From a virus: a DNA stretch of 12,554 nt. Position numbers and translations under genes: made by a program. Under the pieces are notes generated by a model. The model was given only the letters and a program-made list of their open reading frames with translations. It ran no database searches and was not told where the DNA came from. Below are positions 1-12,554 of the stretch, piece after piece (within the stretch, counting starts at the first letter, position 1; the number at the start of each line of letters is the position of its first letter). The stretch lies in the UHGV virus genome UHGV-0141061; one strand, given 5' to 3'.

Positions 1-48
1 TCTACACAGAGTAGATCGTCGGCAGCGTCAGATGTGTATAAGAGACAG
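1..48 (+). other. Illumina Nextera adapter (P5 tail CTACAC, i5 index AGAGTAGA, TCGTCGGCAGCGTC, Tn5 mosaic end AGATGTGTATAAGAGACAG); technical, not biological
   Basis: Read directly: 1-7 tctacac, 8-15 agagtaga, 16-29 tcgtcggcagcgtc, 30-48 agatgtgtataagagacag; its reverse complement is at 12508-12554. Confidence 0.9.
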
Positions 49-567
49 GCATATGGGTACGCATCATTCCTTTTTGGTATGGCTATATGTTTATGCGGAT
101 CATATAAGAATAAGGTTATTGGATATGCAATTCTTATTGCATCACTTTACTTGGCTGGATTTAAATATAATCATTATCTTTACGCATGGTTAAAAGAATT
201 TTCATTATCTATTAACAGCATTGAGAAAATAAATTTATACTTGCTTTTCAATCTATTATCTGGAATTGGAGTGGTATATTCCCTATGTAAGATTGGGGTT
301 ATGTCATGGTTTTCTGAATCAAAAATCATGGTCTTTTTAGGAAAGTTATCATTCTCGGCATACTTAATTCAAATGCCTGTATTTTATTGCTTATCAGGGC
401 CAGTTTATCATGAATCAAGGAAAATCATGAGCGACTCCAGCGCATGTTTATCAGCTGTTTTAATATCAGTGGTGATGCTTTATGCATGTTCTTACATCTT
501 TTATTTGCTCATCGACAGAAAAAGCATCGAGGTTTCCCATAGATTTGCCGCGATCTTTTCAAAGTAA
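49..567 (+). CDS. Acyltransferase family 3 (Oac/OafA-like O-antigen acetyltransferase), C-terminal fragment; 5' end cut by the contig/adapter boundary
   Basis: Frame is open from the adapter junction to TAA 565-567; very hydrophobic multi-pass sequence with an FLGKLSFSAYLIQMPVFY-type segment typical of the C-terminal part of family-3 acyltransferases; AT-rich; sits next to a tailspike as in Sf6-type phages. The track's start at 34 lies inside the adapter. Confidence 0.55.
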   Translation, partial: AYGYASFLFGMAICLCGSYKNKVIGYAILIASLYLAGFKYNHYLYAWLKEFSLSINSIEKINLYLLFNLLSGIGVVYSLCKIGVMSWFSESKIMVFLGKLSFSAYLIQMPVFYCLSGPVYHESRKIMSDSSACLSAVLISVVMLYACSYIFYLLIDRKSIEVSHRFAAIFSK

Positions 568-2937: not shown

Positions 2938-3231
2938 ATGCCATTCCACCCAACTGGTGAGGCATCAAGGATGTACAGCAAATACGACGAGGCGCAGTTT
3001 CACTTGAGACTTCCGCATGAACTTCACGCGAAAATTAAACAGCGTGCGAAGATGAATAACAGGTCGCTGAACTCAGAGATAATTGCAGCGATTGAAGAAT
3101 CATTGACTAAACAAAGCTCTGCATCAGTTTACATTGACGATGCAGAGCGTATGGCAGAACAACAATCCGATATGGTAAAGAAAATTGTCTTTGATACGCT
3201 CAAAGAGCTATATAAAAAAGACAGCAGCTAA
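2938..3231 (+). CDS. mnt: Mnt-like ribbon-helix-helix repressor
   Basis: FHLRLPHELHAKIKQRAKMNNRSLNSEIIAAIEESL...DAERMAEQQSDMVKKIVFDTLKELYKK parallels P22 Mnt (FNFRMPMEVREKLKFRAEANGRSMNSELLQIVQDAL...DAERLADEQSELVKKMVFDTLKDLYKK, recalled). An alternative start is ATG 2971. Confidence 0.8.
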   Translation: MPFHPTGEASRMYSKYDEAQFHLRLPHELHAKIKQRAKMNNRSLNSEIIAAIEESLTKQSSASVYIDDAERMAEQQSDMVKKIVFDTLKELYKKDSS

Positions 3232-3238
3232 CTATCAG

Positions 3239-3742
3239 TTACGGAGGATTCCCGATAGGGGGTAAGGGGGTATTTGTATTTATTGTCTTTTGTATATTGT
3301 CTTTTGTGTTTGACTGATTCGGTAAATTGCTTTTTACCGATTTGGTGAAGGTTTGTTTTACCGAATTGGTAAATGTTTTACCGAATCCGTTAACTTTCGT
3401 TTTCCACTCGGAAATGTTTGTATTCATACCAACTTGACGCCCCACCTGAATGAGAACTCCCATTCTGATAAGCTCGTTTTTGGCGGTAGAGCATTTGGTT
3501 GGTGCCATGCCAGTGAGTTCAGCGAACTGTTCGTTTCCGATCCAATCTATTTTTTTGTTGTAACCGTATGTCTTGCGCCACACAGCCATAACAATCAGTA
3601 ACTGATGTAGAGTAAGTCCAGAAAGCATGGCGGCTTCTAACAGTGTGTTTGCAGTCCGAGTGTAGCCATCTTCGAGTTCTGCCACGCGATGCTCCACGAC
3701 CTCCAGTTGAGGCCTGTAATCAGCTAACTTAACGACGCCCAT
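3239..3742 (-). CDS. Replication initiator O-like protein, N-terminal (iteron-binding) domain only; C-terminal domain absent
   Basis: DGYTRTANTLLEA..LTLHQLLIVMAVWRKTYGYNKKIDWIGNEQFAELTGMAPTKCSTAKNELIRMGVLIQ..NISEW parallels the lambda O N-terminal domain (recalled). AGGAG lies upstream of ATG 3740-3742. The ORF ends at TAA 3239-3241 just after the iteron and A+T-rich segment, where lambda O continues for about 130 more codons. Confidence 0.7.
   Translation of the reverse strand: MGVVKLADYRPQLEVVEHRVAELEDGYTRTANTLLEAAMLSGLTLHQLLIVMAVWRKTYGYNKKIDWIGNEQFAELTGMAPTKCSTAKNELIRMGVLIQVGRQVGMNTNISEWKTKVNGFGKTFTNSVKQTFTKSVKSNLPNQSNTKDNIQKTINTNTPLPPIGNPP
3318..3393. repeat. ori-like iteron array inside the O-like gene
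   Basis: Three direct 18-bp repeats TTTTACCGA(T/A)TTGGT(G/A)AA at 3332-3349 and 3356-3373 and TTTTACCGAATCCGTTAA at 3376-3393, plus an inverted partial copy ATTCGGTAAA at 3318-3327; an A+T-rich segment follows at about 3270-3317, arranged as in lambda ori. Confidence 0.5.
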
Positions 3743-4581: not shown

Positions 4582-5371
<790 letters not shown>

Positions 5372-5402: not shown

Positions 5403-5744
5403 ATGACACAATTTCAACTTGCATTAATCGCTAGAGAAGTTGATGGAGAAGTCATCCATCTTCGCACCAAAGACGGATACATCAATGCCACCGCGATGTG
5501 CAAGTCTGCGGGGAAGCTACTTGCTGACTATACACGACTAAAAACAACACAAGATTTTTTTGATGAATTATCACGCGATATGGGGATTCCCATATCGGAG
5601 TTAATTCAATCATTTAAAGGCGGAAGAGCAGAGAATCAAGGGACTTGGGTTCATCCAGACATCGCAATTAATTTAGCTCAGTGGCTATCTCCAAAATTTG
5701 CAGTGCAAGTATCGAGATGGGTGCGTGAGTGGATGTCAGGTTAA
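5403..5744 (+). CDS. KilA-N domain protein (113 aa) immediately downstream of cI, in the position of lambda rexA
   Basis: AGGA 6 nt upstream of ATG 5403; GYINATAMCKSAGK...GTWVHPDIAINLAQWLSPKFAVQVSRWV is the characteristic KilA-N pattern; same strand as cI. Confidence 0.7.
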   Translation: MTQFQLALIAREVDGEVIHLRTKDGYINATAMCKSAGKLLADYTRLKTTQDFFDELSRDMGIPISELIQSFKGGRAENQGTWVHPDIAINLAQWLSPKFAVQVSRWVREWMSG

Positions 5745-5783: not shown

Positions 5784-6162
5784 ATGACAAACCGAGGCAG
5801 AGTTCCTCATACGCACTTTTCTATGCTTAATGAACTGACGTTTAACTTGGTTGCGCCACTTGAACAGGCCGGATATACGCTGCCAGAAAAAATGGTCCCT
5901 GATATTTCAGAGGGTAGGGTTTTCTCGCAATGGCTCCGTGACAACCGGGGGGTTGAGCCGAAGACATTCCCAACATATAACCATGAGTACCCAGATGGCC
6001 GGACATTCCCGGTACGTCTATACCCAAACGAATATTGCAGATTTCAAACAATACTTCAACGAAGTGTGGCTGCCTCAGTACGCTCCTAAATATTTTGCTG
6101 AACGAGACCAAAGGGCATTGACGTTGATTGAGAAAATCATGCTACCTGACCTTGATTCCTAA
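5784..6162 (+). pseudogene. Hypothetical protein with a broken reading frame (+1 shift between two overlapping ORFs 5784-6089 and 5851-6162)
   Basis: Frame 1 ...FPTYNHEYPDGRTFPVRLYPNEY and frame 2 ...NIADFKQYFNEVWLPQYAPKYFAERDQRALTLIEKIMLPDLDS both look protein-like and switch near 6020-6040; frame 1 is also in frame with the upstream KilA-N ORF across TAA 5742-5744; weak ribosome-binding site. Confidence 0.4.
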
Positions 6163-8274: not shown

Positions 8275-8466
8275 ATGACCGATACCAGCCTGATTCCTGA
8301 GAAAGAAGTGATGAACAAGCTCGGTGTTTCATCACGTCAGACAATCTGGAACTATACCAAACGGCACGGATTTCCGAAGCCAGTCAGAACCCACCCCAAA
8401 TCATACCTTCGTGAAGCTGTTGAAGGGTGGATTCTTAACGGTGGCGTTAATCAGAAATGCTCCTGA
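8275..8466 (+). CDS. AlpA/Xis-family DNA-binding protein (excisionase or regulator)
   Basis: GGAGA upstream of ATG 8275; ..MNKLGVSSRQTIWNYTKRHGFPKPVRT..YLREAVEGWI is the AlpA-type winged-helix pattern; lies beside the integrase; its 3' end overlaps the integrase 3' end by 20 bp. Confidence 0.8.
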   Translation: MTDTSLIPEKEVMNKLGVSSRQTIWNYTKRHGFPKPVRTHPKSYLREAVEGWILNGGVNQKCS

Positions 8467-8920
8467 TGTGCCAGAACAATTTATCAGCGTGAAGCTCATA
8501 CGCTTTGCGCTGAGCCTCTATCCAATCGAGTTTATTGTATACGGACATTATCCCGCCAAGTTCATGACCGAGCATTCGCTCAGTAACATGAGGCTCGACA
8601 TTCATCTCGGACAGCCGTGTAACAAGCGTTCTTCTGAAATCATGTGTTCGCCAGTAACCTAGGTCCATCCCTCCCCTTATTCTATTTACGAATCGGTTGG
8701 CTGCAGCGATGCTGATCGGTTTGTTTATGTCTTCTCCAGGGAAAAGAACATCATTGTACGTTGTCATGGCCTTTTCGAGGAAAGGCTTAATTTGTTCGAA
8801 GATTGGACGGCGGATAACATTACCCATCTTGCTATGCTCTTTCGGTACGGTCCATACGTTGTCCAGCAGGTCAAATTCTGTCTTTATTGCCAGCCTAAGT
8901 TCTGAGAGCCTCGCCCCCAC
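8447..8920 (-). pseudogene. Tyrosine integrase (P4 type), C-terminal catalytic fragment
   Basis: ..GARLSELRLAIKTEFDLLDNVWTVP..HDFRRT..LGHELGGIMSVYNKLDW.. shows the catalytic R/H-x-x-R/Y region; its frame differs from the central fragment at a C5 run (8914-8918). Confidence 0.8.
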
Positions 8921-9136
8921 AGCATAAGCATCTGATGAAGTAGCTTATTTGACGTAGACGCACGGCTTCTTTCAATAGCAAGCCAAATCTTAGCCAGTTC
9001 GTGATACGACAGTACCCGATCCCCTACCTCAGCGCGGGAGCCGAAGTCCCTTGGTTGGATGCTCATAATTGCGCAACTATCTATCAACTGACGCCGCATG
9101 CACCAACTAATTGCTGATCTTAGTTGACTTAGCACC
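8884..9136 (-). pseudogene. Tyrosine integrase, central fragment between the IS insertion and the frameshift
   Basis: In frame with the N-terminal fragment once the IS and one target duplication are removed (1341 bp, a multiple of 3); ends at a stop 8884-8886 created by the frameshift. Confidence 0.6.
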
Positions 9137-9200
9137 TGATGTAGCCCCCTGAAACACCAGACAGTAGCTGTATCTCCAGATAAGAGATAGGCTTGAATAT

Positions 9201-9596
9201 ATGTCTAACACTAACACCAATATTGAGATGACCGGGATCCTGTTAGGGCAAGAAGTCCGTAAACGTAAAACTCCTCAGGAGAAGATCGCCATTATCCAGC
9301 AGACGATGGAGCCGGGTATGAATGTCTCCCATGTCGCCCGCCTGCATGGTATCCAGCCCAGCCTGCTGTTTAAGTGGAAGAAGCAATATCAGGAAGGCAG
9401 CCTCACCGCCGTTGCGGCTGGAGAGGAAGTCGTTCCTGCTTCTGAGCTTACTGCTGCTCTGAAGCAGGTCCGGGAGCTTCAGCGCCTTCTGGGCAAGAAG
9501 ACGATAGAAGTTGAGATCCTAAAAGAAGCCGTGGAGTACGGTCAGTCGCGAAAATGGATAGCGCACGCGCCCTTGTTGCCAAAGGACGGGGAATAG
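9201..9596 (+). CDS. IS3-family transposase OrfA (helix-turn-helix and leucine zipper)
   Basis: ..[78 protein letters not shown].. resembles IS2 OrfA. Confidence 0.85.
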
Positions 9597-10435
9597 CCAT
9601 GGTCAGCCGGACCATGGGCGTGTCGCGTGCGCAACTGTCACTGCGGATTAACCGTTCTGCCGACTGGCAGGACAGGCGCTGTAACCGGCGTAATGAAGAA
9701 GCAGACGCAGAAATACTGTCGGCTATCCTCAACATTATCAGCGATATGCCGAGTTATGGTTATCGACGCGTGTGGGGCATCCTGCGCAAGCAACGTCGCA
9801 CAGAGGGACAGCCACCTGTGAATGCCAAACGGCTTTACAGGATAATGAGCGAGCATAACCTGTTGTTGTTGCATCACAAACCAGAGCGACCGAAGCGTGA
9901 ACATAAGGGCAAGATAGCGGTGGCAGAAAGCGATATGCGCTGGTGTTCAGATGGCTTCGAGTTCGGCTGCGACAACGGCGAAAAACTGCGGGTAACGTTC
10001 GCGCTGGACTGCTGCGACCGTGAGGCCATAGACTGGGCAGCAAGCACGGGAGGCTATGACAGTTCGACCGTGCAGGATGTGATGCTGAGGTCGGTGGAAA
10101 AGCGCTTCGGCGACAGGCTGCCGGAAACACCAGTGCAGTGGCTGACGGACAACGGTTCAGCATATACCGCGCATGAAACGCGGAGGTTCGCCAAAGAGCT
10201 GAATCTGGAGCCATGTACAACAGCGGTGAGCAGCCCGCAGAGCAATGGCATGGCCGAACGGTTCGTGAAGACGATGAAGGAAGACTATATCGCGTTCATG
10301 CCGAAACCGGATGTGAGAACAGCCCTGCGGAACCTTGCAGCGGCGTTCACGCATTACAATGAAAATCACCCGCATAGTGCGCTGGGATATCACTCTCCGA
10401 GAGAATACCGGCGGCAGCGGGCATCGTTAACTTAA
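9554..10435 (+). CDS. IS3-family transposase OrfB (DDE catalytic domain), in the -1 frame relative to OrfA
   Basis: ..[92 protein letters not shown].. is a DDE integrase-core pattern resembling IS2 OrfB; overlaps orfA by 43 nt. Confidence 0.85.
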
Positions 10436-10472
10436 GATACAAAAGCTGTCCGGAAATGGCGGGTCAAGATCA

Positions 10473-10965
10473 GCACCTGCCTTGCTCGGCGTGGATTATC
10501 TTTTTCTTCTTCGGTAAGCAGGTCAACCCATTGCTTAACCGTGATAGAAGATGCCGGACGATTAGGGAAGGCGTCATGCATGCGCTTCATAACCGTTGAT
10601 CGGTAAAGTGCCTGGGTCTTTTCTCTGAGAGTTGTAGAGACGTAGTTGTCGAACCAGTAGTCGAGACACTGGGCGACCGTCATGGAGTTCTCCACCTTCT
10701 CTTCAAAATAGGTGCGTGGATCCGTTCCTGAGAAATAGAGCTTCCGCAAGTCAGCAGTGATCTGTCTGGCATCCTTCAAAGACAGGGATGGGTATCGACC
10801 AAGCCCAAGTCGTTTAGGCTTGCCATACCAGCGATAGCGGTACTGGAACTGGATGACCCCCTTCGGTGAAATTCGTACGCTGAGGCCATCGGCATCAGCC
10901 ACTTCTTGTGGGCCCGAATATGGTTTACCATAAATAGTACGCAGTTTTGTGTCGCTTATAGCCAT
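10473..10965 (-). pseudogene. Tyrosine integrase (P4 type), N-terminal fragment upstream of the IS insertion
   Basis: MAISDTKLRTIYGKPYSGPQEVADADGLSVRISPKGVIQFQYRYRWYGKPKRLGLGRYPSLSLKDAR is the characteristic N-terminal arm-binding domain of P4-type integrases; the track ORF continues 13 codons into the IS before stopping. Confidence 0.8.
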
Positions 10966-11146
10966 AAATAATATTTGGTACGCTCAAAAATAATGGTTTG
11001 GTACACATCTGGTACACAATATCACATGGACAACAGCGCACAGTAAACAACTATATTTGACGTTCGTAGACATACTCAGGTGAAAAAATGGTTGTTTTTC
11101 GAGTTATAACAGACAGTTAATTAACTACAGTGGACAATGCTAGACA
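10966..11146. promoter_or_regulatory. Putative prophage-host junction (attL-like) and integrase promoter region with short direct repeats
   Basis: TGGTAC(ACA) at 10976-10981, 10999-11007 and 11010-11018; GACAATG at 11133-11139 and 11143-11149; palindrome TTAATTAA at 11118-11125; lies between the integrase start and sbcB. Confidence 0.3.
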
Positions 11147-12507
11147 ATGACAGACACAGATAAACAACCTACCTTCCTCTTTCACGATTACGAAACCTTT
11201 GGCACGCACCCCGCGTTAGATCGCCCTGCACAGTTCGCAGCCATTCGCACCGATAGCGAATTCAATGTCATCGGCGAACCCGAAGTCTTTTACTGCAAGC
11301 CCGCTGATGACTATTTACCCCAGCCAGGAGCCGTATTAATTACCGGTATTACCCCGCAGGAAGCACGGGCGAAAGGAGAAAACGAAGCCGCGTTTGCCGC
11401 CCGTATTCACTCGCTTTTTACCGTACCGAAGACCTGTATTCTGGGCTACAACAATGTGCGTTTCGACGACGAAGTCACACGCAACGTTTTTTATCGTAAT
11501 TTCTACGATCCTTACGCCTGGAGCTGGCAGCATGATAACTCGCGCTGGGATTTGCTGGATGTTATGCGTGCCTGTTATGCCCTGCGCCCGGAAGGAATAA
11601 ACTGGCCTGAAAATGATGACGGTCTACCGAGCTTTCGCCTTGAGCATTTAACCAAAGCGAATGGAATTGAACATAGCAACGCCCACGATGCGATGGCTGA
11701 TGTGTACGCCACTATTGCGATGGCGAAACTGGTAAAAACGCGTCAGCCACGTCTGTTTGATTATCTCTTTACCCATCGTAATAAACACAAACTGATGGCG
11801 TTGATTGATGTTCCGCAGATGAAACCCCTGGTTCACGTTTCCGGAATGTTTGGGGCATGGCGCGGCAATACCAGCTGGGTGGCACCGCTGGCGTGGCATC
11901 CAGAAAATCGCAATGCCGTAATTATGGTGGATTTGGCAGGAGACATTTCGCCATTACTGGAACTGGATAGCGACACATTGCGCGAGCGTTTATATACTGC
12001 AAAAGCCGATCTTGGCGATAACGCCGCCGTTCCGGTTAAGCTGGTGCATATCAATAAATGTCCGGTGCTGGCCCAGGCGAATACGCTACGCCCGGAAGAT
12101 GCCGACCGACTGGGAATTAATCGTCAGCATTGCCTCGATAACCTGAAAATTCTGCGTGAAAATCCGCAAGTGCGTGAAAAAGTGGTGGCGATATTCGCGG
12201 AAGCCGAACCGTTTACGCCTACAGATAACGTGGATGCACAGCTTTATAACGGCTTTTTCAGTGACGCAGATCGTGCAGCAATGAAAATTGTGCTGGAAAC
12301 CGAGCCACGTAATTTACCGGCACTGGATATCACTTTTGTTGATAAACGGATTGAAAAGCTGTTGTTCAATTATCGGGCACGCAACTTCCCGGGGACGCTG
12401 GATTATGCCGAGCAGCAACGCTGGCTGGAGCACCGCCGCCAGGTATTCACGCCAGAGTTTTTGCAGGGTTATGCTGATGAATTGCAGATGCTGGTACAAC
12501 AATATGC
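11147..12507 (+). CDS. sbcB: Exodeoxyribonuclease I (SbcB), 3' end truncated by the contig/adapter boundary
   Basis: By-eye translation with no stops: MTDTDKQPTFLFHDYETFGTHPALDRPAQFAAIRTDSEFNVIGEPEVFYCKPADDYLPQPGAVLITGITPQEA...EFLQGYADELQMLVQQYA matches E. coli SbcB except in the first 12 or so residues. Absent from the ORF track, presumably because it has no stop before the window end. Confidence 0.9.
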
Positions 12508-12554
12508 CTGTCTCTTATACACATCTGACGCTGCCGACGATCTACTCTGTGTAG
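12508..12554 (-). other. Illumina Nextera adapter, reverse complement of 2-48; technical
   Basis: ctgtctcttatacacatct gacgctgccgacga tctactct gtgtag read directly. Confidence 0.9.

Follow-up and report, generated by a model that had tools for sequence, protein, structure and literature searches.

An sbcB-side attachment junction of a 2851-type prophage with a phage-derived start of the exonuclease I gene

Gene content of the prophage contig

We examined a 12,554-bp stretch of the virus genome UHGV-0141061 (here called the window), in which prophage DNA is joined on its right side to sbcB, the gene for exodeoxyribonuclease I (ExoI). Translation, BLASTP, and matches to PDB entries place sbcB at 11147..12508 on the plus strand, with 454 native codons; the last ∼20 codons of the gene are missing and are replaced by adapter at the right end of the contig. 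Both contig ends (1-48 and 12508-12554) consist of Illumina Nextera adapter in inverted orientation, TCTACAC-AGAGTAGA-TCGTCGGCAGCGTCAGATGTGTATAAGAGACAG, with an 8-mer that we take to be the i5 index N504/S504. The right-end adapter creates a false SbcB tail, ...QQYACLLYTSDAADDLLCV.

Divergent from sbcB is an integrase gene (int) that encodes both domains expected of a tyrosine recombinase, Arm-DNA-bind_3 and Phage_integrase, on two minus-strand fragments. The N-terminal fragment, at 10473..10965, carries Arm-DNA-bind_3 (Pfam PF13356; E value, 2.5e-18), and the C-terminal catalytic part, at 8447..9136, carries Phage_integrase (Pfam PF00589; E value, 2.4e-13). The gene is cut by an ISEcl1-like element of the IS3 family (9137..10472, plus strand; 1,336 bp) with TG...CA ends and the transposase domains HTH_Tnp_1 and rve, and homology to the int gene of phage mEp234 resumes at 10472. 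Direct reading of the junctions showed a 5-bp target duplication, GCACC, at 9132-9136 and 10473-10477. The element is ∼99% identical to IS3-family/ISEcl1 copies found mostly on plasmids, with 1,588 of 1,910 records from Klebsiella, 140 from Enterobacter, and few from Escherichia. When the insertion was removed, int was identical to mEp234 int at 1,162 of 1,179 positions, with one gap. A 1-bp deletion near 8915, within a run of C's (five in the window versus six in mEp234), frameshifts the catalytic half; this deletion could be genuine or an assembly error. The integrase gene of the window is thus not intact, being both split by the insertion and frameshifted. The 3′ end of int is overlapped by a convergent, excisionase-like helix-turn-helix gene (8275..8466, plus strand; phrog_66, excisionase and transcriptional regulator), and the same 192-nt gene was found in all related loci.

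Left of int lie a RecT fragment and intact cI, cro, and cII genes. A BstA-type abortive-infection gene appears to be in two pieces, a KilA-N ORF and a BstA C-terminal ORF (5403-5744 and 5784-6089), and is probably a pseudogene. At ∼3232-3250 the replication gene O, cut to 167 aa, abuts mnt, which encodes an Arc/Mnt repressor (2938-3231). This joint implies a deletion of P, nin, Q, the lysis genes, and all head genes, amounting to ∼25 to 30 kb relative to the prophage of strain TB06053 (see below), or, alternatively, a chimeric assembly joint. Beyond it, on the minus strand, are a 409-aa tailspike ORF with a P22-type head-binding domain (1668-2897) and a 343-aa ORF with no family match (603-1634); the two may be one tailspike gene split by a frameshift. 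The C-terminal half of an O-acetyltransferase (34-567, plus strand; phrog_3333) lies at the contig edge, in a position resembling that of oac/oacB in Sf6/Sf101-like phages. Judged by its predicted genes, the prophage of the window is a decayed Sf6/Sf101-like remnant without a replication, lysis, or morphogenesis block.

The sbcB start and the attachment core

Positions 11147-11203 of the window read ATG ACA GAC ACA GAT AAA CAA CCT ACC TTC CTC TTT CAC GAT TAC GAA ACC TTT GGC, and translation from the ATG at 11147 gives MTDTDKQPTFLFHDYETFG. Since an in-frame TAG lies two codons 5′ of this ATG (11141-11143), 11147 is the earliest possible sbcB start; the left coordinate of the first-pass annotation, 11133, is 14 nt 5′ of it. 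At the empty site of the K-12-type genome NZ_CP043185, the gene begins instead with ATG ATG AAT GAC GGT AAG CAA CAA TCT ACC TTT TTG TTT CAC GAT TAC GAA, for an N terminus of MMNDGKQQSTFLFHDYE, and the K-12-type SbcB opening is MMNDGKQQSTFLFHDYETFG. The first-pass annotation had described the N terminus as noncanonical and the protein as otherwise essentially identical to that of K-12. Both descriptions hold, the first in the difference between MTDTDKQPTFLFHDYETFG and MMNDGKQQSTFLFHDYETFG and the second in the 445 identities (98%) that BLASTP found between the two proteins over 453 native codons. Of the eight differences, five lie in residues 1 to 8, and three (I>V, T>A, and S>T) are allelic changes scattered elsewhere. 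Because the variant start comes from comparing the sequences directly, the question of chance does not arise. In RefSeq, SbcB has 474 aa in lysogens versus 475 aa in the empty-site genome.

The protein of the window has full-length similarity to ExoI, and over residues 1-453 it matches two exonuclease I chains in the PDB, 1FXX and 4JRP. This similarity includes the N-terminal HDYET exonuclease motif, the D and E of which are catalytic residues of the DEDD family. The substitute start itself comprises the ATG and codons 2 to 11 (MTDTDKQPTFL; 11147..11179, plus strand). The same bases lie next to int in mEp234 and in IMG/VR phages, and they differ from the empty site. On direct reading they form a diverged copy of host codons 1 to 12, with ∼60% identity there, in which the residues T-F-L are kept through synonymous codons (TTC/CTC in the phage copy versus TTT/TTG in the host). 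The phage copy looks like an old, diverged 5′ fragment of sbcB.

Immediately after the substitute start comes a 13-bp attachment core, TTTCACGATTACG, at 11180..11192, which we take as the crossover region. It occupies sbcB codons 12 to 16 (F H D Y E), so that the HDYET codons span the core, and it bears out the first-pass suggestion that the att core overlaps the 5′ end of sbcB. When every copy of the 13-mer was extracted from 24 loci, all of these loci could be assigned without ambiguity to attB, attP, attL, and attR classes, and TTTCACGATTACG was the only stretch common to the four. The attB class was represented by the empty site of NZ_CP043185 and the attP class by mEp234 and two IMG/VR loci (L012 and L021). 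The attL type, in which the host start is followed by phage DNA, was found in TB06053 and 12 IMG/VR prophage loci, and the attR type, in which the phage start is followed by host DNA, in the window, in TB06053, and in four further loci (L001, L005, L006, and L022). The homology of the window to mEp234 ends exactly at 11192.

TB06053 is a complete lysogen, with a prophage of ∼41 kb between sbcB and dacD. Its dacD-side junction consists of host ATGATGAATGACGGTAAGCAACAATCTACCTTTTTG, the core TTTCACGATTACG, and phage CGCAATACCCC, with the phage text continuing as cgcaatacccctga; the native MMNDGKQQSTFLFHDY start and the native promoter region are retained there, fused to phage DNA. In the free phage mEp234, the sequence next to int is ATGACAGACACAGATAAACAACCTACCTTCCTC, TTTCACGATTACG, and then CGCAATACCCC (cgcaatacccc...). 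The window contains the sbcB-side junction; the dacD-side junction lies outside it, the contig ending inside the prophage, and was seen in TB06053 and the 12 IMG/VR loci. With adapter at both ends and a rearranged prophage, the contig shows only part of the element. The displaced native start in TB06053 (44370-44420), as in the 12 IMG/VR loci, now encodes a 20-codon stub, MMNDGKQQSTFLFHDYAQYP followed by a stop, that runs into the far arm of the phage, and the free phage likewise has a 19-codon mini-ORF, MTDTDKQPTFLFHDYAQYP and a stop.

The segment consisting of the ATG, 11 codons, and the core is carried next to int by mEp234 and by L012 and L021, and the reading frame through it is continuous in the window. 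The first-pass proposal that the prophage supplies a substitute start of the ORF is supported by these phages. The alignment with prophage-free sbcB that it had recommended places the beginning of identity at ∼11163-11180, with the core at 11180-11192. On these sequence comparisons, everything left of the core is phage DNA, including the 181 bp that separate sbcB from the divergent int as well as the ATG and the first 11 codons.

The junction belongs to an already known system, the 2851-type integration module. Within a phage collection, 28 records were 98.3 to 99.3% identical to 10472-11192, among them 2851, 1717, Sf101, mEp234, HK544, HK140, and several Stx2a, Stx1a, and Stx2c phages. The 13 bp are labeled "prophage attachment site (type 2851)" in the mEp234 record and "duplication due to insertion of stx2c phage" in the record of phage 1717. 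In the Sf101 paper, the attP core of the Stx2c phage 2851 and of the Shigella phage Sf101 is given as 5′-CGTAATCGTGAAA-3′, which is the reverse complement of TTTCACGATTACG and an exact match at 11180-11192. The window shares with the phages that have this module (2851, 1717, the Stx2a_WGPS phages, Sf101, mEp234, HK544, and HK140) the 13-bp core, the insertion point at the 5′ end of sbcB, and the ATG...CTC segment, which the phages carry in attP. Their integrase, which has an Arm-DNA-bind_3 domain, is of the P4-like tyrosine type. At the DNA level, the window is 98.6 to 99.3% identical to them in its int fragments and int-att spacer, and as in the 2851/Sf101 module, int adjoins the core and is divergent from sbcB, though disrupted. 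Unlike in these phages, the int of the window is interrupted by the ISEcl1-like element and carries the 1-bp deletion, and its prophage is a deleted remnant. The accessible portions of the 2851-type papers name the site and the core and give no explicit account of the N-terminal replacement or of a promoter swap. The sbcB site is a standard locus for typing Stx2c and Stx2a prophages in O157:H7 as well as the Shigella phage Sf101, which converts the serotype.

We conclude that 11180-11192 is almost certainly an attR core, produced by recombination of the attP of a 2851-type phage with an attB in the first codons of sbcB. The phage attP carries, next to int, a diverged copy of the sbcB 5′ end, with its own ATG and 11 codons leading into the core, and strand exchange within the core would fuse this copy in frame to host codon 13 and onwards. 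The lysogen would then retain a full-length exonuclease I, one residue shorter and altered only before the first conserved strand (TFLFHDYETFG), and would make SbcB from the ATG at 11147. The native promoter, together with the native ATG and 16 codons, is displaced by ∼40 kb to the dacD-side junction, where this sequence ends in the 20-codon stub. Because int is split and frameshifted and much of the prophage has been deleted, the prophage of the window has very likely lost the ability to excise unaided, and the exchanged start of sbcB is probably fixed in this strain. The IS-split int suggests a prophage remnant locked in place in the window contig.

Occurrence of the phage-derived start in E. 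coli genomes

We compared positions 10700-11500 with 5,426 complete E. coli genomes by megablast. The sbcB gene was found in 5,423 of the genomes, of which only 578 matched through the upstream part of the query. In the remaining ∼4,850 genomes, the match started abruptly at query positions 464 to 481, corresponding to window positions 11163-11180. The gene 5′ of sbcB was a divergent tyrosine integrase in lysogens versus dacD in empty-site genomes. The wholly phage-derived 214 bp (10966-11179) was present in 581 of the 5,426 genomes. Among the matches listed, the annotated sbcB CDS overlapped these 214 bp in 39 of 39 chromosomal rows, so the RefSeq start of sbcB lies inside phage DNA in the listed genomes. 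For instance, the annotated start in ECONIH4 is 33 nt before the core, the same as in the window. In a 90%-identical variant, FDAARGOS_1277, the reading frame is kept, with one T2A change and one synonymous change.

We considered whether the MTDTDKQP start might be a plain allelic variant, that is, a chromosomal polymorphism with no tie to the neighboring prophage. The rest of the gene does show ordinary variation, in the form of the three scattered substitutions relative to K-12. However, the segment and the 181 bp 5′ of it occur in free phages, where they are joined to phage DNA past the core, and lysogens keep the native start at their other junction. Moreover, 578 of the 581 segment-bearing genomes also match at least 80% of the int-to-sbcB query. 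A degenerate-codon scan for MTDTDKQPTFLFHDYE in 185,579 species-representative genomes (one genome per GTDB species) returned one locus, in E. coli, and so no donor species with a native MTDTDKQP SbcB. The first-pass annotation had named prophage-free genomes with the MTDTDKQP start and the same upstream sequence as the sign of such a polymorphism; the comparisons did not bear this out, and the start and its upstream sequence are carried by free phages. There is hardly any chance that the start is a chromosomal allele of this kind, and we rejected this reading on the strength of the segment in free phages and the native start at the far junction.

The variant N terminus is an easy way to recognize a site that is, or has been, occupied. 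The main bearing of the sbcB junction is on correct annotation, and it has little beyond that.

The int-sbcB spacer and the expression of sbcB

The phage-derived spacer between int and sbcB (10966..11146; 181 bp) is the int-side arm of attP and is 98.6 to 99.3% identical to phages 2851, 1717, Sf101, mEp234, and HK544. Alignment of 10966-11146 with the native dacD-sbcB spacer gave no real similarity. The spacer contains three direct TGGTAC(G/A)C repeats on the plus strand, at 10976-10983, 10999-11006, and 11010-11017, all within 42 bp (10976..11017), which are putative arm-type integrase sites. The window has 3 matches to TGGTACRC, against 0.34 expected. The attP of mEp234 has the same three repeats plus two on the other arm, 57 to 88 bp past the core (5 matches versus 0.10 expected). 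We infer that the TGGTACRC repeats bind Int, their layout being as expected for the arm sites of an integrase with an Arm-DNA-bind_3 domain.

Among other prophages located in coding sequences, the nearest parallel outside the 2851-type family is Rac in ttcA of E. coli K-12. As in sbcB, the insertion is at the 5′ end of the target gene, and att flanks that match imperfectly alter N-terminal residues; the integrase, the core, and the target gene are different. Att sites of the e14 and Gifsy-1 type come with a substitute gene end that is carried by the phage. In icd, e14 and phage 21 exchange the 3′ end, which leaves the promoter and start untouched, whereas in sbcB it is the 5′ end that is replaced, including the promoter region and the start codon. 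In ttcA, four N-terminal residues of TtcA differ with versus without Rac, and a phenotypic consequence has been measured; e14 in icd and Gifsy-1 in lepA are att sites within coding sequences at which the target gene stays functional (PMC4632033). The 5′ location of the sbcB att site means that the promoter region is replaced as well, and this replacement is the only aspect not already documented in the part of the literature that is accessible. Literature searches on the occupied sbcB site yielded no effect on expression or function and nothing comparable to the phenotype measured for Rac.

Since int is divergent from sbcB, the 181-bp spacer must hold the int promoter (minus strand) plus any sbcB promoter (plus strand). 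A strict scan of 10900-11250 for sigma-70 promoters and terminators returned 0 sites. The native K-12 spacer gave one weak match only, 220 bp upstream, in the strict scan; consensus scanning therefore cannot locate either promoter. The best candidate in the window from a custom relaxed scan, which we treat as hypothetical, is a sigma-70-like TGGACA-N19-TATATT at 11027..11057 (plus strand), with 10 of 12 matches and an overlong, suboptimal spacer of 19 nt. The TGGACA and TATATT hexamers are unchanged in four variants, including the 90%-identical one, as is most of the region. Another pair of elements, TTGACG and TATAAC, had been picked by eye and was discarded, both being altered in FDAARGOS_1277.

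These scans bear on whether integration simply inactivates sbcB, in which case the in-frame phage ATG would be fortuitous and unexpressed and lysogens would effectively be sbcB nulls. The site is often termed "disrupted" in the literature, the phage-derived spacer has no consensus promoter, and the Shine-Dalgarno match before 11147 is weak on direct reading. Nevertheless, the native K-12 spacer scores no better in the same strict and relaxed scans, so that a missing consensus is no evidence against expression. The residues from T9 onward are preserved through synonymous codon differences (TTC/CTC versus TTT/TTG), the in-frame start is exactly where it is needed, the frame is kept even in the 90%-identical variant, and in the lysogens examined the RefSeq annotation gives sbcB its full length. 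We therefore regard inactivation as improbable. The conservation and the annotation suggest that the substitute start is functional. An occupied sbcB is not a knockout by its sequence: it encodes a full-length ExoI with a phage-derived N terminus and upstream region.

As for the source of the transcript, no upstream gene points toward sbcB except through antisense int, so in a repressed lysogen the sbcB transcript is expected to begin within the phage-derived spacer. From this gene layout, sbcB would be transcribed from a phage-derived promoter within 10966-11146, as the first-pass annotation had suggested. Transcription mainly by read-through, from the ISEcl1-like element or from the prophage pL operon antisense through int, would be another way to express the gene. 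The transposase genes of the element are on the plus strand, with the right end of the element 675 bp upstream of sbcB; these genes and the early-left genes (KilA-N/BstA, the RecT fragment, and xis) are all oriented toward sbcB, and no terminator-like site was found in 10900-11250. Against this, the cI-like repressor gene (4658-5371) is intact, and pL is repressed in a lysogen, as is general for lambdoid phages. Further, related lysogens and phages examined that have an uninterrupted int of 1,179 nt have the same spacer. Read-through as the main source of sbcB transcripts in the window thus appears unlikely, and a promoter within the phage-derived spacer remains our preferred reading.

Such a promoter would lie ∼130 bp or less from the Int arm-type sites and from the divergent int promoter. 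It is conceivable, if very doubtful, that Int, or read-through from pL at the time of induction, could modulate host ExoI to the benefit of the phage, as opposed to a neutral repair of the target gene. If so, a phage promoter would set ExoI levels in about 10% of E. coli, and the enzyme modulated would be a nuclease whose substrate, 3′ single-strand ends, phage recombinases also use.

The int-side att arm was also present on a replicon annotated as a plasmid. The 39,096-bp circular "plasmid" pEM03-18-08_2 (NZ_CP063485.1) contains the same int together with its int-side att arm, which reaches to 12 bp or less from the record end, and looks like a circularized phage genome of the sbcB-integrating type that was assembled as an extrachromosomal replicon.
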